The position numbers and the translations under genes are program-made. Source: Schmidtea nova (taxonomy: Eukaryota). From it: a stretch of 64,000 bases of DNA. The stretch lies in assembly GCA_044892505.1 (NCBI GenBank), contig CM097882.1, forward strand, positions 186,000,001 through 186,064,000, given 5' to 3'. Under the pieces are notes generated by a model. The model was given only the letters and a program-made list of their open reading frames with translations. It was not told where the DNA came from and ran no database searches. Of the stretch, positions 8,484-63,160 are shown in pieces (position 1 is the first letter of the stretch; each line of letters starts with the position of its first letter).

Positions 8484-11400
8484 CTTGACCTATTTGGTGA
8501 CTCAACTAATCGCCCTGTGTCTGTAAGTAAGTAAGATATATTTTGACTATTCATTTTTACATAGGCGGGTGCACCCGCGCTTGGTACACAAGTGACTAAT
8601 ACAAAGGTAATGATAAAAATTCAAGTTGGGTCATCAGAAAAAGATAATAAGAAAATACAATCTAATTAAAAATAATAAATAAATATAATTGGATAATGGA
8701 AAACCAGAGCGATAAATAAAATTAACAATCAAAGGCATCGCTGAAAAAGTCAATGCTTGAAATAGCCCTTGAGTATTAGATTATTTTCCGGAGAGTGCCT
8801 GAAAATATATTATTATTATTTTTGTAAAGACACCTATATAAGTAATGGCACTTTTTATCAAGTTTCCAGATGGTCGAAGAACGAGAACTCAAGAGAATAA
8901 AAAAGGAGGAGAATCTAAAATTCAATTAAATTATAATTAATTGACCCCCTCAAGCTTTAATATGCCAGTGTTTATACTCAATCTAATATCAATTAAATTT
9001 CCACTTGCTTTCTATTAAAACACCCATAAATAACTAACTAAATCTGAAATGTTCTGATATATACATACTTTATTTGACATACATATCTTTATAAATTTTA
9101 TGTGTCTTGCTTAATTTTTATATATTAACTTCTTCATTTTGCCCTACTTATTTTTTACTTTAAAATGACAAAAACCTTACTTATGATCATACTTCTGACC
9201 TTAACCCCTTCACTGCGGAGAACGAGTATGTCTCGCCATGTTGTGTATTGCAATTAAGTAACTAATAAAATTATTCCGCACACTGAATTTAATTTCTATC
9301 GCACACAGCATCAAAAATAACATTTTTTTCAAATTTAATCACTAGGTGGCGATAGAATAAATAAATATTTAGGACAGCTAATGGTGTAAAATATCTGGCA
9401 GCTGCCCTAGATAATATATGAATTAAATAATATAATCGTAATTTATACAATAATAAATAATTTACAAAAGTAATCCAAATAAATGCACCTAAAATGGCAT
9501 CAAGAAAAGAAAAATTGACGGCAAATGAGGTTTGAGATATTGAGCTTGACAGTGATTTTGATGGTGACATTGATTCTGGCAGTGATGATATAACAGACAA
9601 TGAAGATGACAATGTGCACAGTCTTTGGAACCCTGTAAGTTTTATTATAAAAAATGCTTTGTTTTAACAAAATTACATTACAAAATAATCCTGTCGCACA
9701 CAGCATTTCTATATGGTCGCAGCGAAGTTGTTAAATTGTCTTACTTTTGTGGTTGCTGTGGTAAATGATTATATAAAATTTATTTACTTTACTTTGTCTC
9801 AGAATAGTGTCGACCTATTTATGATGTAGAGGCATCATACTACTGTTAATTTTAGAGAGCTTTAGAAAATATTTTGTAATAGATTTAAAAATATTTTGTA
9901 ATGGCTTTCAAAATAATTTGTAATGAAAAAGAATCTAAACAAAAAAAAATGGAAGAAAAGAAAAAAGAAGTATTAAAATTAACAACAAAAAACCAAAAAA
10001 ATAAAGGAAAAATTAAAAAGAATAAAAGTCACGGAAGATTTATGATAATTGATTATTGTTTGAATCGAGCCAAGACCATTTTTAATTCATTTTTATTTTC
10101 ATCAGTAAACAATTCGTCTGTAATAGTATCAAAGATATCACTGTTTAACCTGTAATCATCAAAAGAAGCATTGCATTGTTGAAGTACGTCAGATGTTTGA
10201 ATTCTCGATACCTTGAATCACAATTAACTTTCTTAAATTGAAAGGAAGGATTGATATCTCTTGGAGATATAATATTATTTTCACAATCTATAGAAATACA
10301 CTCTTTCGTTTCCAATACATCGTCTTAAGTTTGAATGAAAACCATCGAATTAGAGTCTTCTTGTGAGAGAACGTTTCCGACATGATTAAAATGTGATGCG
10401 ATTATGTCTATAGTCATTTGAATCATAGAGAACAATATCCTTTTAAATCCACAGAAATCCAATTAAATCTTCAAATTTAAACTCTAAGTGTCCGAAATTC
10501 AATTACCAAAATTCACTCGTTCCCACTAAGCAAGATTTGAAAATTCCGAAATTCCAGTTTCCAAATTGGATCGACAAAACAACTGATTAATTCCAGAATA
10601 ATCAATTTTTCCGATAAAAAAATATCTCAAGGAATTTTTAATTCAAGACCACTAGCATAAAACATTTGCGCACACAAAACGCGATTACGATATCTAATTG
10701 CGCACACAGACGCGAATAAGCATAAAAAATCAAAAAACACAACGCGCACACAGACGCGAGTACAAAAGCAATCTCAACCACGCTCACACAGACGCGACAA
10801 CAAGAAAAATGAGAAATGCGCACATAAACGCTGAATTGTAAAAAAATAACATTGCCAATTAATCGCGCACACTGACGCTACTAAAAAAGGCTACTGCGCA
10901 CATACATGGCTCAAAATTTGGGCCATGATTATCCACAAAAATAGTCCATTAAAAAAATATTTTTAAATCCATTACAAAATATTTTGAAAAACCCTGTATT
11001 TATTCCAAATAATCTGCATTTTTATTAGTATTAGTCAAGGTTTGGTGTTCAAGTTTCATTTCATTCCAAATTTCACTAAATATGACGCAAATACTAGGAC
11101 TTTACAGGTCACGATGGTGGAGTGTGCTTCATTTTTCTTAATTTATATTTTAGATTTCTAATCTTATTTTTACCAAAACTATATAAACTATATCTCATTT
11201 TTTCAGGTAAAGTTATAATTGACCATTATGACGGAAGATTGTATTGCACTAATTGTCAGGCAGGGACAAAATCAGTTATTCCAAGAAATATAATTTATAA
11301 TTGGGATTTCGATCAAAAATTTGGTTAATTAAAAGATAATAATAAATTTATTAACCTTATTTATTCCAGTTTCCCTGAATACAAAACGGTTTCTCTCAGA

Positions 11401-11847
11401 AATAATGAGTCATCCTAATATAAATCTTGCTGAACACTTGACTTTGTTTGATGTTATTCCGGAATTATCTCGCGTGCGTCAATTAAGACACAAGTTAAAT
11501 CTTCTGTGGTTGCAAGTAACTTCATGCGATATAGAAACTTCAAAAAGAATTCGTGAAGCGATGTTTCCAAGAGATTATATGTTAGGAAGTATAAAAGAAA
11601 GCGATTTATATTCAATAGAAGTAATTGAGCTTTCAAATTGAGCTGTTGTTAAAGATTTCTGTTTTCTTAGGATTTGGTTATTTTACAAAGCGGTATTCTT
11701 GAAAAAACACTTCTTTTCGTTATTAATAAAATTGCTATACCCCATGTTAAAAAATGTCTAACATGTCGCATAAAAACGATGGCATGTGATAAATGTCGTG
11801 ATGAAAAAAAAGTTATATATATTCACGAAATCGACGAATATTGCGAG
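633..11847 (+). CDS. Host multi-exon gene, PLEKHM1/DEF8/Rubicon-homology (zf-RING_9) family; partial. Exons ~633-849, 2406-2680, 7408-7461, 7616-7730, 11207-11323, 11370-11620, 11671-11847
   Basis: GT-AG boundaries join all exons in phase. Translation gives [18 protein letters not shown]...[12 protein letters not shown]...[12 protein letters not shown]...LYSIEDL...HVKKCLTC...CDKC, the Rubicon-homology zinc motif pattern. An acidic LIR-like motif (ESDQSWEFI) lies upstream. First and last exons were not located. Confidence 0.8.
5078..5192. repeat. 15-bp tandem repeat (GTCTTGGTTTATATC) x ~8
   Basis: Directly visible; explains the spurious (VYIVL)n ORF. Confidence 0.95.
5390..6830 (-). pseudogene. 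Decayed piggyBac (PGBD-like) transposase
   Basis: Minus-strand motifs [29 protein letters not shown] and [10 protein letters not shown], with stops and frameshifts; Cys/His-rich C-terminal remnant near 5390-5470. Confidence 0.75.
8441..8480. repeat. (AT)n microsatellite
   Basis: Directly visible. Confidence 0.95.
9201..9734 (+). mobile_element. Non-autonomous piggyBac-like element
   Basis: TTAA at both ends; imperfect TIR CCCCTTCACTGCG / CGCAGCGAAGTTG; internal acidic transposase N-terminus remnant ([31 protein letters not shown]). Confidence 0.65.
10057..10925 (-). mobile_element. Probable solo LTR related to the repeat at 35205-35460
   Basis: TG...CA ends flanked by a TGATTAT direct repeat (10050-56 / 10926-32); many GCGCACACAGACGCG motifs that match the reverse complement of motifs at 35210-35350. 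Confidence 0.5.
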
Positions 11848-43381: not shown

Positions 43382-44583
43382 AAGAAATGGGTCGTCGCTT
43401 GATCTTTTAATGTCTAAATTTGAATCTGATGAGGAATATGTGATATATTTGTCATTGATATGTCACTGATTTTATTGGCTTTGACATCAGAATCTTTTTT
43501 TTCAGTTGAGAAGGCTTTACTGATTTAATTGTTTCTTCAGACTTAATAGGGCTGGTTTCTTTAATTACATTCGAAAAAGTTCCAAAAATTGTTTTTTTTT
43601 CATTGCATATTTTAAAAAATTATGAAATTGTCTTGTTTTGTCTTTGTATTTATAAGGTTAAAAATGTCGATGTAACCAATCAAGTACATGCATCTATACT
43701 GCATATTGGTGTGCATCATGATTCATTACCGACATTTAAGTGTATGCGGCAAATAACTTTTGTGACCTGTATCTGTGCATGCATGATTCAAATATGTATT
43801 TGTCATGCATTAGTATCGCATTTGTACAAATTAATTTCTTTAATAAAAACTGGTGACAAATAAAATTATTTATAATAAAAAATAGTTTAAACTATTTACT
43901 TTAATAATCACTCTTTTATAAACACACACACACAAAATTAAAAAAAAAAGATTTTCAATAATAAAAAACAAAGACAAATGCAAACTAAATATTTATTGCA
44001 TATCAACAATAGATGAATAATGGAATTTTTTCAATTCCTTTCTTAAAAGCCATGTATGATATTTCTTCACACGCTCGAAGCAATATTCGCATCGATTTAC
44101 ACAAATGCTGGCTTTATTAACAATTGGAAGATCCTCGTCTACCATTCTGAGATGATCGATCAATATAGTACGGAGATCGATACCAGATATTGCTCAGATC
44201 TTGAAAGGTAACATTTCCGGAGGGCAGTAAATGAGATCCGTTATCAATCTAGGGTACAACTTCCATCTTTCCGATGAGAATGGACATTAGTTTATCTAGA
44301 AACAAATAAAAAGTAAAAATAGAATATAAAATAGAATATAAACTATGTTTACCATTAATTGAAAACGAAGACATTTTTTGATGAATAACTGAAAAAACTG
44401 TTGGTATTTATACTAATTTATTTAAACACCTGCATACAAACAATCAACCAATCAGAATCGTACATTCGTATTGCGTATGCTATGCATTCATGGATAATAA
44501 AAAATCCAAAAATTCTTTATCTTCAATTATCGATTTTTTTCGCTAATAATTTGATTAACGCTATTTTGATAATCTATATTTTT

Positions 44584-46294: not shown

Positions 46295-47300
46295 AATGGA
46301 GAAGAAATGGAAGAGCCCGAAAGACCCAGAAGGTTATGGTGGGGTCGAAAAGCTAAACAAAAACGTTCCAAACTCGAAAAAAGAGACACACAAGTGGTTA
46401 TCAGGTCAACTAGCATAAACCAATGTTGAAACGATTTCCAACAAGAGCATATAATACATATGGTATTAATGATTTGTGGCAAATGGATTTGATGGAAATG
46501 ATTCCATATTCAAAAATTAACAAGGGATATAAATATTTTTTGACATATATCAATTTCTTCAGTAGATTTGCACGTGCTGTTCCAATCAAAACAAAGTCAG
46601 CTAATAAAATTGCAATAGCAATTAAAACATTATTTGCTGATGGACATCCCAAGAATATACAAACTGATTTGGGTAACAATATAAAATATTATATACATTT
46701 TAATTATAAATTTAGGTAAAAAATTTACAATAGTAAAGTTAAAGAAATTTTCGCCGGGATTAATCATTACTCTGTATTCTTTCAATTCAAAACAGCTCAT
46801 GTTGAACGATTTAATCGAACATTATGAGATCGGCCCAAAAATTATTTTGTATACCAAGTAATAAGACATGGGTCAATGTATTGCCGAAAATAATTCATAG
46901 TTATAATCATTCTCCGCGTCTAGGTATAAATCGATTGAGACCTGTTGATGTTTCAGCAAAAAATACTGGAAAGATTTCTCGTCAAGTAAAAACATTAAAT
47001 AAACCGAAATATAAAATTAATGATCATGTTCGAATTAGCAAAATTAGTACTTCACCATTCATAAAGAATTTTGATAGTAATTGGAGTGATGAGGTATTTT
47101 AAATATCGAAAATATCCTGTCATGTATGTTATTTCTGACTCTGACAATAATGAAGTCAGTGGAAAATTCCACCACTAACTGTATTTAGAATTCAGAGAAT
47201 ATTGAAAACTAAAACGGTGGGTAAGGATAAACAATACTATGTAAAGTGGCATGGATATCAAAATCAATCATCGATATCAGCAAAAGATTTAGTAAAATGA
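46295..47300 (+). pseudogene. Integrase pseudogene (older Polinton), intron 46673-46715
   Basis: WQMDLMEM, QTDLG and HSYNHSP motifs in broken frames. Confidence 0.88.
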
Positions 47301-47582
47301 ATTTCTATACTATTTTACCTAGTAATAGTTGTCCATTTATCCATCCTGACAATCTAGCTAACAAGTTTATGGTCAATCTTCAAATTCCGAATTATTTACA
47401 TGGTGATTGGGAAATTGCATTGCAAGATTTCGTGTTTTTGTACAACACATTTCCATTTTATAGTCAATGTAAGATTGATTACAAAAAGATTGATTCAAAA
47501 ACATGTAGTGGTCTATTCATCATCAAAAATTTTGAAAGAAATTATACTATTCCTAACCAAAATTTGAATGCTTATTGTTGTA

Positions 47583-48636
47583 AGTAGGTAGATGTGTGGA
47601 GCCGGGAACAATTTGATTTCAAGCCATTTATCCCTAAACTGTATAATATTACGTAATAATTTATAAATTTACCCCCCCCCCTCCCCCCCGGGGGGTAGGG
47701 GGGGGGGTACTTTGTTACGTAATAATTTATTATTACGTAATAATTTATTATTACGTAATACTTTATATATTATGTAATTTTTAAAATTTTTAAATTATTA
47801 CATAAGACTATTTTTATTACGTAATTGATGACGTAATACTGAAATTTATTTATTTTTATTTATTTTTTCATAAAATATAAAATAAATTAATTTTTTCAAC
47901 ATTTTTTCCAAAATTTTCAAAAATGCTCAGATTTCAATAATTTTTATACCAATCTACTGAGAATTCAAAGGCGAACAAAAAAGGCACAAAAAAGGAAAAA
48001 CATAAAAAATTGGTATCATCCGACCAAATTTTACACGTAAAAAGGGTCAAGTCGGGGAAATTCCTTAAATTGATTAGAAATTAATAATTTTTATGCTAAT
48101 CTTCTTTCTATTGAAANNNNNNNNNNNNNNNNNNNNNNNNNNNNNNNNNNNNNNNNNNNNNNNNNNNNNNNNNNNNNNNNNNNNNNNNNNNNNNNNNNNN
48201 NNNNNNNNNNNNNNNNNNNNNNNNNNNNNNNNNNNNNNNNNNNNNNNNNNNNNNNNNNNNNNNNNNNNNNNNNNNNNNNNNNNNNNNNNNNNNNNNNNNN
48301 NNNNNNNNNNNNNNNNNNNNNNNNNNNNNNNNNNNNNNNNNNNNNNNNNNNNNNNNNNNNNNNNNNNNNNNNNNNNNNNNNNNNNNNNNNNNNNNNNNNN
48401 NNNNNNNNNNNNNNNNNNNNNNNNNNNNNNNNNNNNNNNNNNNNNNNNNNNNNNNNNNNNNNNNNNNNNNNNNNNNNNNNNNNNNNNNNNNNNNNNNNNN
48501 NNNNNNNNNNNNNNNNNNNNNNNNNNNNNNNNNNNNNNNNNNNNNNNNNNTGAAAAACAAATCATAACAACACACATAAAAATCAACAAAATTAAAAACT
48601 AATGTTTTTTGATAAAAATTTATTAAAATAACAAAG
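47583..48636 (+). repeat. Left terminal inverted repeat (spans a gap)
   Basis: Reverse complement of 62317-63160 on both sides of the N gaps. Confidence 0.93.
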
Positions 48637-48749
48637 TAAGGGGTTTTCAAAAAACATAAATTTTTAAAATACAACAAGTGAGAATTTATCAACATTTATT
48701 AATAAATACACATATATATACAACATCAATGTTATTTATTCGAATCCAT

Positions 48750-49193
48750 CTATGCAATTCTAGCGCTTTTTATTTTCCAAATTGGAGACATTGATTCTTT
48801 TGGATCGATTTTATATCCTTGGATGGATATATCAATAAACCAATTTTCATTATCTGTATATTCAACTGATTGAAATGCATCATGAAATTCGGTGTTCCTG
48901 TTGTTGATGAATATTGTTTCATTGCAAGATAATTTCTTGTTGATTTTCGTCAACACTTTATTGATTGCAACAACATCTTCTTTATAAATCTGACCAATCA
49001 AGTTGGAATATTGAGAAGTCGACAGCTTTACCGGATTTGGGACCTTGAAAAAAATTTCGTTTACCAAGAAAAACATTTGGTAATCGTGAAACATCTGAAC
49101 CGGTTGTAAATCAAATTTGTTTTGAATTGATTTGTTATCGTTCCTAACTGGTTTCATTTTAATTGGACTCGATTTGATGAAAATATTTTGCAT
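48750..49193 (-). CDS. Polinton accessory protein, 147 aa (possible OB-fold ssDNA-binding protein)
   Basis: Clean ATG ORF with TATAAATA ~36 nt upstream; beta-rich C-terminus IDISIQGYK...PIWKIKSARI. Function is inference. Confidence 0.65.
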   Translation of the reverse strand: MQNIFIKSSPIKMKPVRNDNKSIQNKFDLQPVQMFHDYQMFFLVNEIFFKVPNPVKLSTSQYSNLIGQIYKEDVVAINKVLTKINKKLSCNETIFINNRNTEFHDAFQSVEYTDNENWFIDISIQGYKIDPKESMSPIWKIKSARIA

Positions 49194-49668
49194 TTTATGA
49201 ACAAGACTATTTTTATTCTATTATTTATACTCGTCATTGTCTGTGTGCATCCAATAAAATTTTTGCACATGTCTTGCAAATCGATTACACATGTATGCAA
49301 GTTGACGATTATCTCTCTACCTCAATTTCTTTCTATTGTAATTTATTTACATATCTATNNNNNNNNNNNNNNNNNNNNNNNNNNNNNNNNNNNNNNNNNN
49401 NNNNNNNNNNNNNNNNNNNNNNNNNNNNNNNNNNNNNNNNNNNNNNNNNNNNNNNNNNNNNNNNNNNNNNNNNNNNNNNNNNNNNNNNNNNNNNNNNNNN
49501 NNNNNNNNNNNNNNNNNNNNNNNNNNNNNNNNNNNNNNNNNNNNNNNNNNNNNNNNNNNNNCATAACAACACATAAAAAAAAAATCAACAAAATTAAAAA
49601 CTAATGTTTTTTGATAAACTTAATATATAAACAATAAAACGATAAAAGAACATTTTTAAAATAAATAT

Positions 49669-50025
49669 TTATTTATTTACATCAAGCTTTCGTTCATAAC
49701 GATCCAGCTGATATAAGATTTCCTCGCGATCTTTTAAATATGTCCAATTGGGACAACATTTGCAATGAAAGCAGCAAATCGGTTCAATTTTCAACTGATT
49801 TTTCTTCCTATGCTCTCTAATGATATCCTTGATATCGATTCCAGTAAGCATAAATATCTTTACTGGGATCAATTCTGGAGCCCAGTACGTTAAATCCTTC
49901 AGTTGATAAGGATACAGTCTTTCAACCGTTTCGATCAATACTTGGGTAAGTTCTTCTAAATATAAAATTAATAAAAATTAATATATTATTTAAAGATATT
50001 TACCGTCTGTGGATTTATCTTGCAT
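49669..50025 (-). CDS. Two-exon Polinton protein (~102 aa, Cys cluster CCFHCKCC); exons 50025-50004 and 49955-49669
   Basis: ATG plus 22-nt exon, 48-bp GT-AG intron, in frame; the homologue in the older element has the same 22-nt first exon (44374-44353). Confidence 0.8.
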
Positions 50026-50129
50026 TTTGATAAAAATAATGAATAATTTACGTGTTTATATATGAAATATAGTAACACACAACAACCAATAAAAAACATA
50101 CACACTCATTACGTATACATTACAAATAC

Positions 50130-50600
50130 TTAGGTAATACTTAGTAAAAAGTTTAGGAATTCTTCCTCATCAATCATCGATTTTATTTCGTTAATAATTT
50201 GTTCAACCAAATCATGATAATCCAAAGTTTTAATACCAAGTATTACTATTTTGCCACTTGCAAAAACGTTTACACATAATGGATTAAATTTAGAATATCT
50301 CAAAGCTGGAAATATTTCTGGTTCATAAACACAATTAGATTTTTTCAATAATAAATATAAATTAACATGGGATCCTATATCTGCAGTCACTGTAATTGAT
50401 TGAATTTGAATATTTTCTATTGTATATTGTAAATCTTCATTTTTTAAAGGTTTTTTGCACCCCATAATTCGACATTTACCTGATTTGAAAAATATAATCG
50501 TATATTTTCCACTTCTATCGACAATTTGTTGAGGTTTCCCCATTGGAAATTTCATGTGCGAAACTGAGCATTTACCTTTATAATTTATGTTGGTCAACAT
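50130..50600 (-). CDS. TATA-binding protein (TBP)-like protein, 156 aa
   Basis: Two TBP repeats: TIIFFKSGKCRIMGCK and IQSITVTAD...YEPEIFPALRY...VNVFASGKIVILG (cf. TBP YEPELFPGLIY...LIFVSGKVVLTG). Confidence 0.88.
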   Translation of the reverse strand: MLTNINYKGKCSVSHMKFPMGKPQQIVDRSGKYTIIFFKSGKCRIMGCKKPLKNEDLQYTIENIQIQSITVTADIGSHVNLYLLLKKSNCVYEPEIFPALRYSKFNPLCVNVFASGKIVILGIKTLDYHDLVEQIINEIKSMIDEEEFLNFLLSIT

Positions 50601-50692
50601 TTATGATGTAATAAAAATTTAAATATTTTTTATTCGTGTAAAACAATTAATTAAAACAAATATAAACAATAACAATTTCTTTAATATTTTAA

Positions 50693-51316
50693 ATGGAATT
50701 GAGAAACGATGCAGTATATCAAATTGTCGGTCCAAGTGGAAGTGGAAAAACTTTATTTGTTTGTAAATTATTACAATCAAAATTATTCAAATCAAAATTT
50801 AATAAAATTTATTGGCATAGGGGAGCTGATGATGAACATGGAATGACTCAAGATCAATTCTGTAAAATTAAAATGACAATAATAAAGGGATTCGATAAAA
50901 ACTGGTCGTCTAGATTACGAAGTGGTGATGTAATTATTATTGATGATTTGTATCAAGAAGCAAATAAAGAGAAGGATTTCAATAATTTATTCACAAAAAT
51001 TGCTAGACATAAAGGAGTTACAGTAATTTTTATTACTCAGAATTTATTTCATCAGGGTGGTAGTCATCGAACTCGAAATTTGAATGTTCAATATCTAGTT
51101 ATTTTTAAAAATCCTAGAGATGCTACAGTTATTGATTTTCTTGCAAGACAGGCTTACCCTAATAATCGGAATTTCTTGATCAATGCATTTCAAGATGCAA
51201 CTAAAATCCCACATGGATATATTTTTCTCGATTTTACTCAACAATGTAGCGATGAATTACGTGTTAGAACTGATATTTTTAACAAAGAAGGAGCAATGGT
51301 TTATAAACAAAGTTAA
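50693..51316 (+). CDS. A32/FtsK-like DNA packaging ATPase
   Basis: Walker A GPSGSGKT, Walker B IIIDD, ARH, ITQN and FKNPRD, typical of Polinton ATPases. Confidence 0.95.
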   Translation: MELRNDAVYQIVGPSGSGKTLFVCKLLQSKLFKSKFNKIYWHRGADDEHGMTQDQFCKIKMTIIKGFDKNWSSRLRSGDVIIIDDLYQEANKEKDFNNLFTKIARHKGVTVIFITQNLFHQGGSHRTRNLNVQYLVIFKNPRDATVIDFLARQAYPNNRNFLINAFQDATKIPHGYIFLDFTQQCSDELRVRTDIFNKEGAMVYKQS

Positions 51317-51336
51317 ATTCGTGTTCGAAATTAATC

Positions 51337-51882
51337 ATGAGACTTAAAGCACGAGCTAAACATCCAAAGCTATCAAAACTAAGAAAAGTTATTAAAAAGA
51401 ATCGTGAAACATTAATTCCATCTAAAACGAGTTTCACACCTCCGAAAAAATTAATCACCGAAAATTTTCCCAAAATGAATCTAATTTCACACAATTCAAA
51501 ACCCGATAAACCAAAGATACCAAAGGCAACTGCAAGTAAAAATTCTAAAAATCATCGCAGTTTTCCATTTTTCAATGCCTTACTCAAGGCTCCAAGCATT
51601 AGAAGAATGAGTATTTTACAATCATTTCCCAATTATATTATTGATGATTTACTTGATGTTATAGTGAAAATTGTCAGAGGTAAAATTAATATCAGTAAAT
51701 CAAACAAAAATGTATTGAACAAACACAAGAAACCATTATTATCACTCGTAAATACTAAAAATCGAAAACAAATGCGTAAAATAATATATAAACAACATGG
51801 AGGGTTTATTGCTGCTCTATTACCATTAGCATTATCTTTATTGGGTGGAGCAGGATTACTGGGAAAACCTTCAACATCATAA
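51337..51882 (+). CDS. Basic core/DNA-condensing protein with adenovirus pX-like C-terminus
   Basis: Very Lys/Arg rich; ends QHGG|FIAALLPLALSLLGG, resembling the adenoviral pX GG|xLPxLIP tail. Confidence 0.7.
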   Translation: MRLKARAKHPKLSKLRKVIKKNRETLIPSKTSFTPPKKLITENFPKMNLISHNSKPDKPKIPKATASKNSKNHRSFPFFNALLKAPSIRRMSILQSFPNYIIDDLLDVIVKIVRGKINISKSNKNVLNKHKKPLLSLVNTKNRKQMRKIIYKQHGGFIAALLPLALSLLGGAGLLGKPSTS

Positions 51883-51885
51883 ACA

Positions 51886-52119
51886 ATGGGACAAACTCCT
51901 TTGAGTCATTTATCTAATCTTACATTAAATTTTAAATCTTCTTGTTGTAATGCAGAAGATATGGACAAATCCAAAAGACCCGGCAGGTTTCGGTGGAGTC
52001 GAAAAGCTAAAGAAAAAAGTCCCAAACTCGAAAAAAGAAACTCAAAAATGGTTATCGGGACAACTGGCATACAGTCTAAACAAACCGGCATTGAAACGAT
52101 TTCCAACAAGAGCATATAA
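51886..52119 (+). CDS. Small ORF overlapping the integrase 5' end in another frame (77 aa)
   Basis: ATG 3 nt after the previous stop; MGQ start, CC pair, basic tail; corresponding sequence retained in the older copy (~46231-46420). Confidence 0.5.
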   Translation: MGQTPLSHLSNLTLNFKSSCCNAEDMDKSKRPGRFRWSRKAKEKSPKLEKRNSKMVIGTTGIQSKQTGIETISNKSI

Positions 52120-53004
52120 AACATATGGCATTAATGACTTGTGGCAAATGGATTTGATGGAAATGATTCCCTATTCAAATATTAACAAGGGATATAAATA
52201 TATTTTAACATGTATCGATGTTTTCAATAGATTTGCTAGGGCTATTCCAACTAAAACAAAGTCTGCAAACGAAATGGCTGTTGCGATCAAAACAATGTTT
52301 GAATCTGATCGTCCAAAGAATTTACAAACTGATTTGGGTAAGAAGGTATACTAATTTTATCCATTTTTAATTATAATTTAGGTAAAGAATTTTACAATAG
52401 TAAAGTCAAAGAAGTTTTGGCCGGGATTAATCACTATTCGGTGTTCTCTCAATTCAAAGCAGCCCATGTTGAAAGATTTAATCGTACATTAAGAGATCGA
52501 CTAAAAAAATATTTTGTGCATCAAGGTAATAAAACATGGATTAATGTACTACCAAAAATAATACATAGTTATAATCATTCGCCACATAAAGGAATAAATG
52601 GATTGAGACCTGTTGATGTTTCAACGAAAAATACTGGATCTCGCAAATTAAAAACTAAAATAAAGAAACCGAAATATAAAATTGGTGATCATGTTCGAAT
52701 TAGTAAGATTAGCGCTTCGCCATTCATCAAAAATTTTGATAGTAATTGGAGTGATGAGGTATTTCACATCTCAAAAATTAATACTATCCAAGATCCTGTC
52801 ATGTATGTTATTTCTGACTCTGACAATAATGTCGTCAGTGGGAAATTTTATGAACAAGAATTACAAGTTATTCCTCCGCCAACTGTATTTAGAATTCAAA
52901 AAATATTAAAAACTAAAATTGTGGGTAATGATAAACAATACTACGTAAAGTGGCATGGATATCAAAACCCGTCATGGATATCATCAAAAGATCTAGTAAA
53001 ATGA
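51950..53004 (+). CDS. Retroviral-like integrase with C-terminal chromodomain; exons 51950-52337 and 52382-53004
   Basis: WQMDL (D), QTDLG|KEF (D), VERFNRTL (E); removing a 44-bp GT-AG intron restores QTDLGKEFYN; chromodomain YYVKWHGY..SWI. Confidence 0.95.
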
Positions 53005-53996
53005 ATTTTTATATGATTTTACCAAGTAATAGTTGCCCATTAATTCATCCAGATAATCAAGCTAGTAAATTCATGATCAATTTACAAAATCCAATTTATT
53101 TACGTGGTAATTGGGAAGTTGCATTGCAAGATTTCACATTTGTATATAACAAATTTCCTTATTACAGTCAATGCAAAATTTACTACACGATAGTTAGAAC
53201 TGAAACTGTAAATGAATACTTTCAAGTTCAAACTAATTATGAAGATACTCAATATTTGAATGATAAAGTTGAATTACATCTAGATAAAATATATTTACAT
53301 ATAAATTGTGATATAACACCATTTTATTTTAAGTTTGAAAATATAGAAGATGCGAATAAATTTGGGTTTAATGAATTAAAAATCATTAGCAACAATTCAA
53401 CTTATAAAATGCTTATTCCTTCTGAATATTCATCAGAGAAAATGCATATATCAATAAGTTATGATTTAGAAACAGATTTACTTTATGAATTCCAAGATGA
53501 AATATACATGACAAAAGTTGAAGATTTATATAATTATTTGTCAATTTTCTGTTCTCATATATTTCAAGGTGTTGAAATTATTGACAATGTATTCAAATTT
53601 AAACTGAAAGACGAAGTGAAAGAAGTTATATTTGATCAAAAACTGATCAATACACTTGGATTAAAATATGAAAAATATCAAGATAGAGAAGTTAAAGGAA
53701 TTCGCAAAGCCAAATTATTTAATCATCATCAACAAATGTTCATTTACAGTAACATTATTGAACCAATTATTGTCGGTGATTCTCTAGTTCCTTTACTGAA
53801 ATCAGTTTGGATTAATAAATATGAACAAGATGAAGTAGTACAAATTGTTGTTGATAATCCCATGTATTTATCGCTTTCAACTTCATGTATAAACAATATT
53901 GAGATTAATATTCGTGACGATAGTGGAAAGCTTATCAACTTTTCAAAAGATTCAAAAACACATTTGACATTACATTTTCGTAAATTAGATGATTAA
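53001..53996 (+). CDS. Minor capsid (penton-like) protein
   Basis: MNFYMILPSNS...N.ASKF...L.GNWEVAL and MFIYSNIIEP.IVGDS.VPLL...LHFR, typical of Polinton minor capsid; ATG at 53001 overlaps the integrase stop. Confidence 0.9.
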   Translation: MNFYMILPSNSCPLIHPDNQASKFMINLQNPIYLRGNWEVALQDFTFVYNKFPYYSQCKIYYTIVRTETVNEYFQVQTNYEDTQYLNDKVELHLDKIYLHINCDITPFYFKFENIEDANKFGFNELKIISNNSTYKMLIPSEYSSEKMHISISYDLETDLLYEFQDEIYMTKVEDLYNYLSIFCSHIFQGVEIIDNVFKFKLKDEVKEVIFDQKLINTLGLKYEKYQDREVKGIRKAKLFNHHQQMFIYSNIIEPIIVGDSLVPLLKSVWINKYEQDEVVQIVVDNPMYLSLSTSCINNIEINIRDDSGKLINFSKDSKTHLTLHFRKLDD

Positions 53997-54381
53997 TCCG
54001 GACATAATTTCACTGTATAGTAACGGACAAACTGGTGGGGAAATACCATATTTTGTTGGGAAACAGTATGGATCTGGTTGGTTAAGGACTATTGGGCGAT
54101 TTGCACTCCCAATTCTTAAGCGAATAGGTAGTTTTGGTTTGAAAACTGCCAAAGATGTGATCATGAATGATCAGAAAATATTACCATCATTGAAAACAAA
54201 TGCATTGTCTGCTATTGGCAAAGTACTGCCTACTGTGACTAGTATGATTCCTAGTGTAACAAATATGTTTAATAAAGATGAACCTGAACCGGAACCGGAA
54301 CAAGTGGGGCCTAGGCGTAAAAAACATCGAAGGTATATAAACAATAGAATGAAAGGACATGGAACTATATTTGCAAAATGA
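53989..54381 (+). CDS. Small virion protein with amphipathic helix (adenovirus pVI-like, putative membrane-active)
   Basis: QTGG and QYGSG|WLRTIGRFALPILKRIG amphipathic segment; basic C-terminus; lies between the capsid genes. Confidence 0.72.
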   Translation: MINPDIISLYSNGQTGGEIPYFVGKQYGSGWLRTIGRFALPILKRIGSFGLKTAKDVIMNDQKILPSLKTNALSAIGKVLPTVTSMIPSVTNMFNKDEPEPEPEQVGPRRKKHRRYINNRMKGHGTIFAK

Positions 54382-55598
54382 TTTGTGGTAAATCTGAATT
54401 ATGTCTTTTTGACCGACCATCTCCTCAAGCAGTCATTGAATATGGTGCATTTGAAGAAGTATTTCCCATGAATTCTATTACAGATGGTAGAAATGATGTG
54501 GAATTTTACATTAACGGATCTCAATCTGAATACTTAGATTTGAATGATACTTTACTAACAGTTCAAATAAAAGTTGTAAATGCCGATAAAAAAGATTTGT
54601 CTGCTACGGATGATGTTATACCAAACAATTTTATGTTTCATACTCTATTCAAGGACGCCATTCTTGGGTTTAATAATATAAAAATTGAAGGTGGAAACAA
54701 TACATATGCACACAAGGCAATAATCGAAACTATTTTAAATTATAATAGTGATACTAAAGAAACTTGTCTTACTCCAATGGGATATGGAGATTCTGATGAG
54801 AGAAAAGCATGGATCAAAGGCTCAAAATTGTTCACAATGTGTTCATCTCTACAACTGGATTTCATGGATCAACCGAAATATTTATTACCAGGTGTCAATG
54901 TTCACATCAGACTGAAGCGATCTGATTCTGCACTATCATTATATTCAAAAAATGGCGCACCAAAATGTCAATTAGTTGATGCAAAGTTAATGATTCGTCG
55001 CGTTCGAGTTGAACCATCTGTATTAGCTGGACATCAAGTTGGACTTAACTCAAAACACGCCATTTATCCAATAAAAACCAAAGAAATCGTACAATTTGCT
55101 ATTGGTAAAGGTGCATCATCTTTCTACAAAGAACAAATATTCGGAGATCGAAGGATGCCTAATTTTATTCTGGTCACATTTCAAAGTGAAACTCAATACA
55201 ATGGATCATATAATGCATCTAGTTCGAAATTCAAACATTTCAATGTAACTTCCCTATCTCTATCGAAAAACACTGATTATAGAGAAACATACACTCAAGA
55301 TTTCGAAAATGATAATTATTGTACTACATATATGCAGTCGATGGTCAGAAATATGGGATATTTAGATATGAATTTGAATTGTGGTATAACACTTGCCGAT
55401 TTTAAAAACAAATACCCTTTCTTTACATTTGTTTTGGCTCCGGATTTCGATTTAAATCAAAGTCAATTACCTCAAAATGGAAATTTGAGATTGGATATAA
55501 AGTTTTCTAAAGCTATTGAAGAACCAGTACATGTAATAATATATGGAGTATTTGAAAATGAAATTCAAATTTCTGCTAATCGAACAGTATTGGTTTGA
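54378..55598 (+). CDS. Major capsid protein (double jelly-roll)
   Basis: KSELCLF..P.PQ, EYLDLNDT, QPKYLLPGV...L.R, FKHFNV and GNLRLDIKF motifs typical of Polinton MCP. Confidence 0.92.
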   Translation: MICGKSELCLFDRPSPQAVIEYGAFEEVFPMNSITDGRNDVEFYINGSQSEYLDLNDTLLTVQIKVVNADKKDLSATDDVIPNNFMFHTLFKDAILGFNNIKIEGGNNTYAHKAIIETILNYNSDTKETCLTPMGYGDSDERKAWIKGSKLFTMCSSLQLDFMDQPKYLLPGVNVHIRLKRSDSALSLYSKNGAPKCQLVDAKLMIRRVRVEPSVLAGHQVGLNSKHAIYPIKTKEIVQFAIGKGASSFYKEQIFGDRRMPNFILVTFQSETQYNGSYNASSSKFKHFNVTSLSLSKNTDYRETYTQDFENDNYCTTYMQSMVRNMGYLDMNLNCGITLADFKNKYPFFTFVLAPDFDLNQSQLPQNGNLRLDIKFSKAIEEPVHVIIYGVFENEIQISANRTVLV

Positions 55599-55665
55599 GC
55601 AGAGCTCAGACATTACTGGTTTAAACTAACATTATAAATGTGCAATTCAAAGTTAACAATTTGTC

Positions 55666-56065
55666 ATGGAGTAAGTTTTTATTATTTATCAAATAAATCT
55701 ATTTAAATAGTTCTATTCAGATTAATCGAATTGGAAAACAATTATTGGGAAATGAATTTATTGGAGTATATCCACTAGACAAAATACCTTATTTAGATGA
55801 CAATCAAGCCATAGTCGTCAATACACAATCATCTACTCTAAGTGGCGAACATTGGATAGCTGTATATGTAAAGCCGATCAAGATATATGCATTCGATCCA
55901 TTCGGATGTTACTATCCAGGTTTATTAGTTAGTAAACTGCAAACATTAGGAAAACCTATTGAATATAATCGAATTCGATATCAAGATCCATTAACAATTA
56001 CTTGTGGTCAACATTGCCTTGCATGGCTTAATTCAATGTTAAAAAGTATAAACAATGTAGTTTAA
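55666..56065 (+). CDS. Adenain-like cysteine maturation protease; exons 55666-55670 and 55711-56065
   Basis: Catalytic GEHW, FDPFG and Q..TITCGQHC. No in-frame ATG without splicing; a 40-bp GTAAGT..TAG intron gives MDSIQINRIGKQLLGNEFIGVYP. Confidence 0.88.
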
Positions 56066-56068
56066 TAT

Positions 56069-56503
56069 ATGTTTTTAGAAAAAATGACTTGTTATTTTAT
56101 TGATATTTACGGCTATAATGATAATTGTGGTGGAAAAATTATTAAAGAATTATGTATTATGAATGTTAATAATATTTTTCGACCAAAATATTGGATATAT
56201 AATGATGTTCCTTTTTGGGCTGGAATTGGTGAACCTGATAGATTAGAATGGTATGAAGGTGAAGATCATTTTTGTCCAACTTGTATTTTGAAAGAAATTG
56301 AAGATGTTGGTGCGATTTTCTATGTTACTGATCAAGATAAACTTTCTGTTTTAAAAAGATATTTCCCCTCCCTAAGATTAATTAAGTATAATGTTAAGGA
56401 AGTTGAAACTTTTCCTGACAATATTTCATGTCCATATCGAGATCATACAAATTGTGCATATAAAGGGTGTTTGGTGGGGGTTTTAGATTATTTGAAAAAT
56501 TAA
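56069..56503 (+). CDS. DEDD-fold nuclease-like protein with putative E-C-H-C zinc site
   Basis: FIDIYGY...IIKEL N-terminus and CPYRDHTNCA C-terminus. Confidence 0.6.
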   Translation: MFLEKMTCYFIDIYGYNDNCGGKIIKELCIMNVNNIFRPKYWIYNDVPFWAGIGEPDRLEWYEGEDHFCPTCILKEIEDVGAIFYVTDQDKLSVLKRYFPSLRLIKYNVKEVETFPDNISCPYRDHTNCAYKGCLVGVLDYLKN

Positions 56504-56812
56504 TGATATGTTTAAATTAATTGCTTTGAAATACAAAATTAATTGATTTGCAATTGAAATGCATGACCTCTATGGTTATCGTGCATGAGTAATCGTGTGT
56601 GTGTATTAACGGAAATTATAATGACGTGTTTGATAATACAAACATCTGGTAATTTCATGTTGTTTGTGTGCGAGCATTTCTCTAACCTATATCGATTCTG
56701 ATTGGTTGGTTAATAAAATTTGAAATTTCATGCTTTATATACACTATACTTTTACTTTTTAGTCACTTTTAATCACAAACTTTAAACCGCATTAATACCA
56801 ATACTCTAAAAA

Positions 56813-57295
56813 ATGTTCAATTTTACTATTTCAAAGCAAAGACAACTCGCCGGAGGAATTAATGGTAAATTTCTGATTTTTATTTTTTATATTTCTTATA
56901 TTTATTTTATTAGAATTAAATATCGCGAATAATATCGCAAACACTCTAACAGCAACAACTAGCGGAAATGGAGCCGCATCATCAGTTGGAAAATCTAACA
57001 TAAATCGAAATAATGGTAAATTTTCTAAAATGATTATTATTATTTTTATTTATAATTTTTAGAAAATTTGCTAATTAATGTATCTAAATTCCATGAAGTA
57101 GATATTGATGGTGCTAATTATATGCCGAATTATGCCCCAAATTATATGCCGAATTATGCCCCAAATTATGCTCCGAATTATGCTCCGAATTATGCTCCTA
57201 ATTATGCGTCAAGTAATGCCCTAAATGACTGCAGTATTTCGGATGTCCTGAATTCTGGATCGAATTTCGTTGGAAAAGTATCGAAGAAATGTTAG
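56813..57295 (+). CDS. Three-exon Asn-rich protein with (NYAP/NYMP)n repeat; exons 56813-56864, 56914-57015, 57063-57295
   Basis: Two phase-1 GTAAAT..TTAG introns (49 and 47 bp) give one open frame of ~128 aa; missed by the ORF track except for the last exon. Confidence 0.75.
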
Positions 57296-58115
57296 TATTT
57301 ATTGTATTTTCGTTTAATTTCTGTTTTAAAGTTATTATTTGTTTTTTTATTTTAAAGTTATTATTATTTGTTTTTTATTTTAAATTAATATTTTATGATG
57401 AAGAATAAATTTACTATATCTTTAATGTAATATGTAATTGTTTGTTGAACCATTACGTATTAAGTTAAAGATAAATAGTTTATAAAATTAATTATATTTA
57501 TATTACGAAGAAAGAATTTTAGTTTTTTCTATAATAAAAATTATATAATGAACATATTTTAATGAAAATATATTATTTTATGACGAAGAAATCTATGTTC
57601 TAAATCTATGATAAATATTATGCTGATAACCTATTTCATTTTATGAGATTAAGTTTTAATGATATTTATTTTTAATAAATGTTTTATGATGAAATTAAGA
57701 ATAGATTGTGAGGGAAATTTTAGGAATATTTATAACAAATGATATTTATTTTCAATATTATAAAGTATTATTAAAAGTTATAATAAAAAATAATAATAAT
57801 AATAATACTAACTTAATGATAATATTAAAAACTAACATGTTTATCATATAACATACGGTAACATAATCGTTAAATTATCATATTTCGTTAATCGCACATC
57901 ATACAGTTACATAACCCTTTCAAACATAAACTTTATCTTTATTTTGACATTTGACTAACTTATTATGTAATAGTTTAAACTGATAAAATAGATTTAACTT
58001 TTTGGTAATAGGTTAAGCTTATGTTTATTTTTCAATTATTTTTTAATTATTTTATAATTATTTTTTAATTATTTTATAATTATTTTATCATTATTTTAAA
58101 GGTTCAGATTATCCA

Positions 58116-58553
58116 TTGTACTGTAATAGTACTTTACATAATGATTGCCATCACATTATGGAAAAATACTATTCCTACAAATATAATGGTGTCACCCACC
58201 TCCTCTGTCCTAAATGTAAAATTATAGAAACGATATCATATAGAGAATTCTTTAACAAACATAGGTCCCATCTTACTCAATATATGCCTTCAAAAAAATC
58301 ACTTTTTAAGAGTTTAAATCAAAACCAAATTAATTTCAATTATAATAATAATAACTTTAATCAAAATAATAATAACAATAATAATAATAAAAATGCCAAC
58401 ATTAACAACAACAATAATCTAAATAATAATAATAATTTACAAAATATCAATAAAAGAAAAAACACAACAAATATGGATTCAGTTCCTACAAAAATACAAA
58501 TAATCGACATCAGTGATGATGAAGATATTAATATTGATAATAATAATAATAAT

Positions 58554-58617
<64 letters not shown>

Positions 58618-61600
58618 GTAGTAATATTCATACTATAACCATCAGTGATGATGAAGATATTAATAATATTGATAATAATAGTAGTAGTAGTAATATTCAT
58701 ACTATAACCATCAATGATGATGATGAAGAAATAATCATCATCAGTGATGATGAAAATTCCCAATTAAATAATAATATAAATAATAATCAAATTGGATATG
58801 GGTTAGTCGAAGTCAATTCTGACTTGAACGACAATCATGTTATAATAAAACTAGATGTCACAAATTTAGAATTAAAAACGGTCTCAGTGCCTGACATTTT
58901 GTTAAATAAATTAAATTTCTATGTTAATAAATTAAAATCATGTAAAATTCAATTTTGCCTTAAGGTGGAATTTGAGAAAGATGATGAGTTACAATCTTTC
59001 GTCATCTCAAATTCTGCCAGAGTTTGGAGCGATACCTTCATTGACGAAGGTATTTCAAATTTAAATGAGAAAATAGTTCAAATAAATGAAAAAGGTAGTA
59101 ATTGGACTATCAATAAAATCGAGTACATAAGTTTTGTTCTCACTAAATTTTCAGAAATAAGTCGGTTAAGTGGCAATAGTTTTATTAAAACCCCTAAATC
59201 ATTAAAGAATTTAAGCTGTCTTATAAATGTAATTAATAATGACAATTTTTGTTTCTTGTATAGTTTCCTATCAATTATTAAATATGAAAATGTCAATAGA
59301 CAATATAGAAATCGTCCTACTTCCTACGATCTTTCACAAATTAAATTTGACCCTAATGATATGCCGATGAAACTGGCAAATATAAGTAAATTTGAAAATC
59401 AAAATCCCGGCTATAGTATTAATGTCCTTAGTTATGACGAAAAGGCCTTGATAGACATTTCTGATGAAGATGCAGTTTTGAAGCATCCTTTTATTGATAT
59501 AATTTATCGAAGTAAGGTAGTAGGAGGAATACCTATAAATTTATTATTAATTGAAAATAAAAATACTTATCATTATGTGGGAATCACAGATTTAAATAGA
59601 TTCCTTAATTGTAGGAATAGTTCAATCACTCCTGTTAGGATTTGTAGCCAGTGGTGTCCTAGGTGTTTAAACGGTTTTAGGAACAATGAGTCTTTTAATA
59701 GGCATAGGGGTCTTTGTGATAGAAATCAGCTGGGTACTACCTTGTACACATTACCCAAAAACAAATATCTTGAATTTACTGATTGGAAGAAAACTGTCAC
59801 TCCTCCCTTTGTTATTTACGCCGACTTTGAGGCTATCTTACCAAAAGATGTTAAATACTTTCAACGTCACTTGCCGATTTCTGCTGGCTTACTTCTAATT
59901 AATAATTTTACCGGTGTAAAAATTTATAAATCATTCGTCGGTTTAGATTGTGTCAATCAATTTCTTAATGAAATTGAGTTGATTAGTAAACATATAGTGA
60001 CGCCTTTCTTTTATAAAAATTATCAAAAGAAAATGATAATTACCGACGTTCAACAATTAGATTTCGAAAACAGCACATCTTGTTATTTGTGCAATAAACC
60101 TTTAGTTTGTCCAGTTAGGGACTATGACCATTTTACCGGTCTATTTCTTGGCGCAGCTTGCAAAGCTTGCAATGTTTCAAGGCAAATTAGACATACCCTT
60201 CCTGTCATCTTTCATAATTTAAAGGGTTATGATCTACATCACATCTTAAAATTTGGCCTTTCAAAATACCATTCATGGAATATTAGTTGTATTCCTTTGA
60301 CCAGCGAGAAATTTCTTAGTCTTTTTGCTAGGATTGACTCCTTAACCGTTAAGTTCATAGACTCTTATCAATTTGTCAGCGAGTCTTTAAATAATGCTGT
60401 CAAAACTTTATCTTCTTTACCCTTGACCGAATCTGAATTTCAGGGTACAATAATAACAGCAAAGGGAATTTTTCCGTATGACACGGCAACTTCTTTAGAA
60501 GTTTTACAAAACACTCATCAGTTACCTCCTATCTGGAAAGACGTGAAGCCAGATGAATATGAGACAGCTCAGAGAATTTGGCGTGAAACCTCATGTACAT
60601 CGCTTTATGATTACATGATGGTTTATTTGAAACTCGATGTTTTCCTTTTAGCTGATTATTTTCAGCAATTTAGAGCTAAGTCTATTGTACATAACCGACT
60701 AGAACCACTAAATTTCTTAGGAATTCCAGGTATGTCTTGGAATTCCGCCTTATTAACTTTAAAATCTCCAATTGAGCTCCTCACCGATATGGAGATGTAT
60801 AACTTTTTCGAGGGCGGTATCCGTGGCGGATTAACCTTTGTAAATAAACACTATGTAAAAACAGGCCCGGATACTGCATTGCTTTACATAGACATAAATA
60901 ATTTATATGGTTGGGCATTAAGTCAACCTTTGCCATGCAGTAACTTTGAATGAGTCACAGATGACCACTTATTAAATGATATAATTGTTGAGTGCACATC
61001 GGTAGATTTAGATGTACTTCATTATGGTTATACCATAGAAGTGGATTTAGAAATACCGGCGTCGATTCACGACAAACTGGATGATCTTCCAGTTGCCGCT
61101 GAAAAGATGTGTGCACCGGGTTCGAAAGTTGAGAAGCTGCTGCTTACGCACTATCCAAAGAGGAACTACGTTCTTCATTGGAGGCTTCTGCAACTGTTTA
61201 TTAAATTAGGTGTTAAAATATCAAAAACACATAGAGCAATAAAATTCACACAAGATAAAATTTTTCAAAATTATATAAATACAAATACGGCGTTACGAGC
61301 AACGTCGACAAATAAATTAGATAAAAATTTTTATAAATTACTAAACAACAGTCTTTACGGCAAGACTGTTGAAAATCTTAAAAAACGTATAAATTTGCGT
61401 TTATGCAATTCGTCACAGAAGTTAATGACTTACTGCTCCAAACCGACTTTCCGAAAATCCACTAAGATCGACGATGACTTGATTTCTGTTTTGTTACGGA
61501 AGGAATCAGTGTGTTTGGATAGACCTAGTTACATTGGTCAAACAGTACTAGATTTATCCAAACTTAGGATGTACCAGCTACAGTATGAAGAGTTGCAAAA

Positions 61601-62261
61601 ATATCGTGACGACTTCAACTGCGAAATCAATATCGTTGCTGGGGACACTGATTCCTTCTTTTTGGAAATTAAAAATATTTCGTTAGATATACTCTTACCG
61701 GCAATGATTAGGGACAATCTTCTTGACACTTCGAATTATGACCCAAATCATCCTTTATACAGTAGGAACCTTGATTCTGTCGTTGGAAAGTTCAAAGACG
61801 AGAATAAAGGGCTACTGTATGAAGAGTGGGTGTTCTTAAGACCTAAGTGTTATAGTTTAATGGGCGATGAGGCATGTATGAAAGCTAAGGGGATTTGCAT
61901 GAAAGATGCTGGACTAACACATCAGTCGTATCTAGATTGTTATTTAAATAACAAAATATACACAGTCCCCCAGTTTAGAATAACTAGTAAGAACCACCAG
62001 TTATTTAGTATAAAAAATAATAAGAGGGCCTTGACTTGTAAGGATGACAAGCGTAACTGGATTGATAAAAATAAAAGTTTGGCATATGGCCATTATAGAG
62101 GGGGTGACACCAATATATTTGTAGATGATCCTGATGAGTGGGCAAATACAGAATGGCTAGATGCCGAATGGCCTCATACAGAATGGCCCGATGCCGAAAA
62201 TCTTGAATGGGATAATGTCGATAACATAATGTTGCCGATAAATGAAGACACAATGTCGTAG
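58116..62261 (+). CDS. Protein-primed family B DNA polymerase polyprotein with one in-frame TGA at 60951-60953
   Basis: Exo YADFE, FHNLKGYD, KFIDS; pol YIDINNLYG, KLLNNSLYGKT, AGDTDS; KCY. The two ORFs are in the same frame, separated by a single TGA. N-terminal GSNW and NDNFCF..HY motifs; EndoVII-like CYLC..DH.TG..AC..CN insert. Confidence 0.93.
58335..58790 (+). repeat. Coding (AAT)n poly-Asn tracts interleaved with repeated I-x-I-S-D-D-E units
   Basis: Directly visible in DNA and translation. Confidence 0.9.
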
Positions 62262-62316
62262 ATAATTGTGGAAATGCCGAGGGACTTGCATGTCCAACCA
62301 GATAATATAGACGGCT

Positions 62317-63160
62317 CTTTGTTATTTTAATAAATTTTTTATCAAAAAACATTAGTTTTTAATTTTGTTGATTTTTTTATGTGTTGTTATGATTTGTTTT
62401 TCANNNNNNNNNNNNNNNNNNNNNNNNNNNNNNNNNNNNNNNNNNNNNNNNNNNNNNNNNNNNNNNNNNNNNNNNNNNNNNNNNNNNNNNNNNNNNNNNN
62501 NNNNNNNNNNNNNNNNNNNNNNNNNNNNNNNNNNNNNNNNNNNNNNNNNNNNNNNNNNNNNNNNNNNNNNNNNNNNNNNNNNNNNNNNNNNNNNNNNNNN
62601 NNNNNNNNNNNNNNNNNNNNNNNNNNNNNNNNNNNNNNNTTTCAATAGAAAGAAGATTAGCATAAAAATTATTAATTTCTAATCAATTTAAGGAATTTCC
62701 CCGACTTGACCCTTTTTACGTGTAAAATTTGGTCGGATGATACCAATTTTTTATGTTTTTCCTTTTTTGTTCGCCTTTGAATTCTCAGTAGATTGGTATA
62801 AAAATTATTGAAATCTGAGCATTTTTGAAAATTTTGGAAAAAATGTTGAAAAAATTAATTTATTTTATATTTTATGAAAAAATAAATAAAAATAAATAAA
62901 TTTCAGTATTACGTCATCAATTACGTAATAAAAATAGTCTTACGTAATAATTTAAAAATTTTAAAAATTACGTAATATATAAAGTATTACGTAATAATAA
63001 ATTATTACGTAATAATAAATTATTATGTAACAAAGTACCCCCCCCTCCCCCCGGGGGGGAGGGGGGGGGGGTAAATTTATAAATTATTACGTAATATCAT
63101 ACAGTTTAGGGATAAATGGCTTGAAATCAAATTGTTCCCGGCTCCACACATCTACCTACT
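62317..63160 (-). repeat. Right terminal inverted repeat (spans a gap)
   Basis: Reverse complement of the left TIR with a few substitutions and one ~11-bp indel. Confidence 0.93.

Follow-up and report, generated by a model that had tools for sequence, protein, structure and literature searches.

The window analysed here is a stretch of 64,000 nucleotides (nt) of Schmidtea nova (contig CM097882.1, positions 186,000,001 to 186,064,000 of the forward strand). It contains a young 15.6-kb element at 47583..63160 that ends in AGTAG..CTACT, has a 6-bp target-site duplication (TSD; GTTGTA) on both sides and carries terminal inverted repeats (TIRs) of ~1 kb (left repeat 47583..48628, partner 62326-63160; partly N). 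With its AG..CT-ended TIRs, its 6-bp TSD and its predicted polymerase, integrase with chromodomain, ATPase, protease and double-jelly-roll capsid, the element classes as a Polinton/Maverick, and the sequence that hosts it is itself an older, decayed Polinton. A 218-nt duplication in the older element (63179-63396 and 47369-47586; 98% identical) flanks the young insertion and exceeds the 6-bp TSD. Our subject is a set of GT-AG inserts that split genes of the young element and appear to be spliceosomal introns.

Candidate introns in a young Polinton

Five short stretches within the element (introns 1 to 5) start with GT, end with AG and consist of 82-94% A+T, with lengths of 48, 44, 40, 49 and 47 nt; all five lie exactly where an earlier, sequence-only reading of this DNA had placed them, and a scan of eight unsplit reading frames of the element (~8.8 kb) found no stretch of the same kind. 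The count of five may be too low, as a long candidate at 57291-58101 (intron 6) had been overlooked. Introns occur in the enzyme genes and in none of the ATPase, capsid and TBP-like frames. The older element was said to share two of the positions, and the sites are indeed homologous: its small-open-reading-frame intron (44296..44352, minus strand, 57 nt) corresponds to intron 1 and its integrase intron (46673..46715, plus strand, 43 nt) to intron 2. The splice dinucleotides are likewise retained in other copies while interior and length vary, so that the inserts display U2-type traits, namely GT and AG at a fixed position and phase and a free interior and length beside flanks under coding constraint. 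YTRAY-like branch matches occur in four of the six introns, as expected by chance in such A/T-rich DNA. The five short introns are not copies of one another, save for the similar donors of introns 4 and 5; their interiors were not searched genome-wide outside Polintons. In four sequencing runs of uncertain kind, two apparently genomic contigs read straight through intron 1, and none of the joints listed coincided with an intron, which is evidence neither for nor against splicing.

The integrase with its chromodomain occupies 51950..53004 on the plus strand (rve E 4e-8, Chromo E 3e-4), with exon 1 at 51950-52337 and exon 2 at 52382-53004. Intron 2 (52338..52381, plus strand, 44 nt) had been described as splitting the QTDLG-KEF motif between glycine and lysine; the site is right, but the intron is in phase 1 and cuts the Gly codon itself, after the second catalytic Asp. 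Under the usual DDE layout, the intron separates the second Asp (exon 1) from the Glu (exon 2), and the DNA read without splicing encodes a truncated integrase that lacks the third catalytic residue. We collected 247 integrase homologues, and in tblastn 8/8 homologues align in two frames that join at the insert. The spacer between xDxG and EF is exactly one residue in 89 of 120 homologues and 12 residues in one, with the motif unmatched in 30, a count that used only proteins of at least 362 aa and thus favours unsplit genes. Across the genome, 5,262 integrase junctions carry an insert versus 164 that do not, in pattern counts that require intact flanks and are biased to young copies. Among 100 inserts listed and inspected by eye (38-50 nt), 100 start with GT and 99 end with AG; in loci fetched from the genome all 33 integrase inserts are GT-AG, 38-44 nt long, with interiors that share 0.53 to 0.86 identity with the window. 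The ratio of nonsynonymous to synonymous substitution rates (dN/dS) is 0.04-0.19 on each integrase exon against eight intron-bearing loci, at a synonymous divergence (dS) of 0.2 to saturation, and both exons are under purifying selection. The two-frame alignment, the junction counts, the clade described below and the dN/dS values agree with the proposal that this integrase is split by an intron and not frameshifted by decay.

The 14 intron-bearing rows group together in a quick protein tree (Shimodaira-Hasegawa-like approximate likelihood-ratio test, 92), with an intronless family of the same genome, family C, as sister and the single-ORF (open reading frame) homologues outside; 15 of 38 loci were left out of this tree for stops or frameshifts and nine more as near-duplicates. 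A DNA tree of exon 2 also groups all 14 intron-bearing rows, with weaker support (86/62). The integrase intron was likely gained at a G|GT site, and probably once, with moderate support that does not prove one gain without loss. Loss within the intron-bearing clade was considered and rejected: three intronless junctions with the clade codon and four other intronless copies are all nearer to family C. Family C itself is a ~14-kb palindromic element (L125:2517-10000, L126:1-6752) with many near-identical copies and pairs ~7 kb apart; its arms, 99.8% identical, hold the ATPase, the intronless integrase and capsid genes, with a single protease at the centre. Its integrase is an unbroken frame of 340 aa in many near-identical copies, and no polymerase was found in the stretches within or beside the palindrome.

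The adenain-like cysteine protease (55666..56065, plus strand; Peptidase_C5 over the cut-off) aligns weakly to the adenovirus protease and carries the His and Cys motifs. Its predicted exon 1 is only 5 nt long (55666-55670), exon 2 spans 55711-56065, and intron 3 between them (55671..55710, plus strand) has 40 nt and phase 2. Unspliced, the frame has no Met ahead of the catalytic His. The idea that splicing restores the protease frame holds for the ATG at 55666, which precedes the donor by five bases, but not for the upstream ATG, and the spliced N-terminus would read M-D-S-I-Q. A 5-nt exon followed by a GT-AG intron (37-43 nt, all three length classes modulo 3) was found in 33 of 37 loci with a protease match, the other four being decayed or deleted copies, and it recurs in family C and in 3/3 metagenome contigs, which are short, lack an integrase and encode a capsid protein 59-61% identical. 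Patterns covering part of the families found 1,322 protease junctions with an insert and none without. In addition, the N-terminus expected of the spliced form, M-[DN]-[ST]-x-x-[IL] from residue 1, is present in 33 of 149 homologues, and an apparent A/T-rich intron read-through opens the three closest ones. The protease intron appears older than that of the integrase, and it is presumably ancient in the clade. The earlier suggestion that the introns are old in the lineage is borne out by the divergence between intron-bearing families, with dS from 0.2 to saturated, and by the presence of the protease intron in the metagenome contigs.

A small ORF without assigned function lies at 49669..50025 on the minus strand, with exon 1 (50004-50025) comprising seven codons and one nucleotide, exon 2 at 49669-49955, and intron 1 between them (49956..50003, minus strand, 48 nt, phase 1, with in-frame stops). 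Parsing that looked for phase 1 only recovered an intron of 40-54 nt after 3-10 codons in 25 of 28 loci with a small-ORF match. The protein gave no usable PHROG or Atlas match and only a sub-threshold match in Pfam.

Upstream of the polymerase on the plus strand, three low-complexity, fast-changing leader exons (56813-56864, 56914-57015 and 57063-57290; ATG at 56813) are separated by intron 4 (56865..56913, 49 nt) and intron 5 (57016..57062, 47 nt), both in phase 1. The intron 6 candidate (57291..58101, 811 nt, phase 1, containing AATAAA) would link them to the main exon of the family B DNA polymerase (58102..62261, plus strand; DNA_pol_B_2 E 4e-9), whose frame is interrupted by a stop at 60951-60953 in the window copy. 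A phase-1 acceptor lies immediately before a conserved YxxYCxSxxH in 16 of 17 loci, and coding conservation of the polymerase starts at this acceptor, ~18 codons ahead of the first Met. A matching donor ending in T was identified by script in 6 of 12 loci and by eye in four more, one decayed copy being unread; in a shuffle control any chain appeared in 2/120 and an all-phase-1 three-exon chain in 0/120. With T before the donor and GT or GC after the acceptor, the split codon is Cys, which may be the first of a likely zinc-binding motif. Leader exon number and sequence differ between families. Without the long splice, the leader would stop one to two codons further on in four of six parsed loci, so a short leader product is possible; AATAAA lies inside the intron in 6/6. 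Together, introns 4, 5 and 6 likely form a spliced leader of the polymerase gene. In one family (L146:7280-7650, L147:7195-7560) the leader contains exon-intron units in phase 0 that are repeated in tandem, which shows one way for introns to multiply, and in another (L144) an apparent minus-strand intron-bearing gene stands ahead of the polymerase.

Unsplit genes, genomic load and host introns

The remaining genes of the element are unsplit. On the minus strand lies a TBP-like protein (50130..50600; Pfam PF00352, E 9e-18). The plus strand carries an A32-type packaging ATPase (50693..51316; Pfam Pox_A32, E 1e-6), a conserved basic ORF without family match (51337..51882), a 331-aa ORF that is minor-capsid-like by position alone and had no match in Pfam or PHROG (53001..53996), a conserved 130-aa ORF (53989..54381), the major capsid protein (MCP; 54378..55598, 406 aa) and a conserved 144-aa ORF without family match (56069..56503). 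The predicted structure of the MCP (pLDDT, predicted local distance difference test, 57) suggests a double jelly roll: a Foldseek search matched the Sputnik MCP (3j26, E 6e-13), the mavirus MCP (E 1e-11) and also an iridovirus capsid, from a model of moderate quality with a template-modelling score of ~0.4 to the double-jelly-roll matches. A model built from the single sequence was too poor and was discarded. Families L144 and L151 hold the minor-capsid-like gene in two tandem copies.

Smaller features were also seen. A 155-aa frame inside the element (48750-49217, minus strand) has no family match above the cut-off. A small ORF from 51886 overlaps the 5' end of the integrase in another frame and is kept in family C (L125:5560-5751); it begins with Met-Gly, which is presumably compatible with myristoylation. 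The motif TATAAACAA(T) occurs at 50662, 51303, 51879, 52931, 53889, 54337 and 56048, which places it 22-101 nt upstream of most genes of the capsid-integrase module, with equivalent sites in six other families, and the element's own TBP-like protein could read it. Outside the element, the window holds a 1634-aa retroelement ORF (30362-35266) in which HSP90-like and ubiquitin-like domains precede DUF1759 and an aspartyl protease. Among viral contigs, no relatives of the element were found.

The Polinton load of this 1.25-Gb genome is very large: over 5,400 integrase junctions whose flanks are intact, with and without insert, indicate thousands of copies. The host's own introns are represented in the window by two (46 and 50 nt) in a Rubicon-domain gene (11324..11670, plus strand), whose three exons align one after another along Pfam RH_dom (profile 4-34, 40-119 and 121-175). 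Searching for host genes with the Rubicon exon returned nothing, and myosin was used instead; one myosin exon of this genome shares 80-85% identity with flatworm myosins and 83% with that of one bryozoan, which makes a flatworm host likely. Myosin gave from 36 junctions 27 short introns of 45-89 nt (median 53) and, in a second pass, 11 introns of 43-57 nt (median 48), one of them shared with the first. In this small sample of 37 short introns from one gene family, lengths run from 43 to 89 nt, a broader range than the 42-50 nt given before. The proposed match between element and host intron size holds in part: introns of the small ORF and of the leader (mostly 43-57 nt) fall within the host range, those of the integrase and protease at or below its lower edge.

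Probable host splicing and its alternatives

We put at roughly 90% the probability that the GT-AG inserts, found at fixed sites across many Polinton families, are spliceosomal introns removed by the host, and that the integrase, the protease, the small ORF and probably the polymerase need a spliced mRNA. In such a scheme, host RNA polymerase II would transcribe the element in the nucleus and the major spliceosome would remove the introns from its mRNA; the protease intron would be ancient and the integrase intron a later gain at a G|GT site, while introns 4, 5 and 6 would join a variable leader to the polymerase across a split Cys codon. As unspliced transcripts would yield a truncated integrase and a protease without a start before its catalytic His, there would be no usable unspliced product. 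Splicing is most likely constitutive, with the introns tolerated or mildly helpful to expression.

Several observations weigh against this scheme or parts of it. Introns 3 and 5 lack a clear CTAAT-type branch site, and the integrase and protease introns (37-44 nt in the fetched loci) are shorter than nearly all of the 37 host short introns. The intron conservation within families seen in the pattern counts is a sign of youth, not of selection. For a single gain of the integrase intron, the DNA tree of exon 1 is unfavourable, as it places two intronless copies weakly inside the intron-bearing clade. The genome also holds a family, C, with an intronless integrase. The script missed the leader chain in 6 of 12 loci, and by eye none was seen in L144.

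The alternative that survives best accepts the introns and makes their removal a switch: retention of the short introns, or polyadenylation within intron 6, would turn off the integrase, the protease and the polymerase depending on cell type or stage, while the capsid genes are unsplit. The restriction of introns to enzyme genes, the early stop of the leader without the long splice and the AATAAA in every parsed copy of intron 6 speak for such gating, and the available text of one report, in which planarian Polintons are piRNA (PIWI-interacting RNA) targets and are desilenced in differentiation (PMC8532177), makes it plausible, no more. However, AATAAA is expected by chance in DNA this rich in A and T, family C manages without an integrase intron, and three or four split genes of eleven are too few for a pattern; we regard regulation as possible but less likely than not.

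Somewhat less probable is the view implied by the sequence-only reading, in which introns 4 and 5 are part of a small gene of their own and translation of the polymerase begins at the Met of its own frame. The three leader exons do make a complete small ORF with its own stop, and their sequence and number vary between families; against this stand the retained donor phase and split Cys codon and a polymerase frame conserved from the acceptor onwards, before the first Met, in nearly every locus.

Far less likely is a reading in which the inserts are disabling and the families that carry them are non-autonomous, relying on an intronless family for integrase and protease. Family C, with its unbroken integrase in many near-identical copies, would be a candidate donor, and the polymerase of the window copy is itself broken. 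A disabling insert would hardly leave both halves of the integrase under selection, as they are in the intron-bearing families; moreover, junctions with an insert far outnumber those without, no intronless protease junction was found by patterns that cover part of the families, and the presumed donor has the protease intron too and shows no polymerase in its surroundings. Least probable of all is ribosomal frameshifting or hopping in place of splicing: recoding is common in retroelement integrase genes and an A/T-rich stretch near 52342-52354 is open in both integrase frames, but insert lengths of 38, 40, 43 and 44 nt leave different remainders and would demand shifts that differ between families, which excludes a single rule, while homologues allow one residue at the integrase site, GT and AG are retained, and the protease has no upstream in-frame start.

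Known systems and significance

Intronless core genes are typical of vertebrate and nematode Polintons, without being definitional, and the predicted core genes here depart from that trait. The vertebrate Mavericks share with our element the TIRs, the 6-bp TSD, a size of ~15-17 kb and the pPolB, integrase, ATPase, protease and capsid genes; they are described as having eight ORFs, all of them intronless, and intact elements are said to contain 'no introns' (Barreat and Katzourakis 2021, PMC8097293), whereas three core genes here appear to be spliced. Caenorhabditis Mavericks, also from an invertebrate and with the same core set, do have introns within the element, but the accessible part of that report places them in host-derived cargo and calls the core genes intronless (bioRxiv 10.1101/2022.07.12.499685). 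The introners of dinoflagellate maverick-polinton-like elements, as far as the text at hand describes them (PMC11957031), are likewise intron-generating inserts in Polinton-like proviruses; they are mobile copies that mostly arrive after integration, in contrast to the non-repeated inserts seen here, which appear to be inherited at fixed sites across families under selection. Closest in the integrase itself are the Ginger1 DNA transposons, whose Gypsy-like integrase genes have 1-4 GT-AG introns at conserved positions, yet which are, according to the portion available, single-gene cut-and-paste elements without polymerase or capsid (PMC2836005). Dugesia is reported to have undergone Maverick expansions, without a word on introns in the text available to us, and one Polinton survey remarks that large insertions in degraded copies come out of its gene predictor as introns. 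Our literature search, from which Repbase entries, subscription papers and supplements were left out and of which some sources were available in part only, turned up no paper that describes spliceosomal introns in the core genes of animal Polintons; prior annotation in the sources left out is possible.

Adenoviruses belong to a related viral lineage, and in their E2B and IVa2 transcripts a small upstream exon is spliced on to supply the first residues of polymerase and terminal protein; unlike the Polinton described here, they are lytic, have long regulated introns and lack an integrase. It is tempting, if doubtful, to suppose an adenovirus-like spliced expression programme in a flatworm Polinton clade, in which integrase, protease and polymerase would be made only after host splicing, the polymerase by way of a rapidly evolving leader of several exons, the last leader intron would decide whether a short leader protein or the complete polymerase results, and the capsid and packaging genes would stay intron-free behind their own TATA-like signals. 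If this were true, host control of the splices would set when the element copies itself or makes particles.

The practical consequence concerns annotation, in that screens for intact animal Polintons seek unbroken ORFs and would thus score thousands of selected copies as frameshifted and miss the starts of the protease and polymerase. In addition, the splice junctions could serve as probes to separate productive from silenced transcripts, and the presence of intron-bearing and intronless sister families in one genome offers a rare case for studying intron gain at a catalytic loop. Finally, such introns would place transcription in the nucleus, within reach of the spliceosome, a point relevant to whether Polintons of this kind replicate autonomously or depend on a cytoplasmic helper virus.

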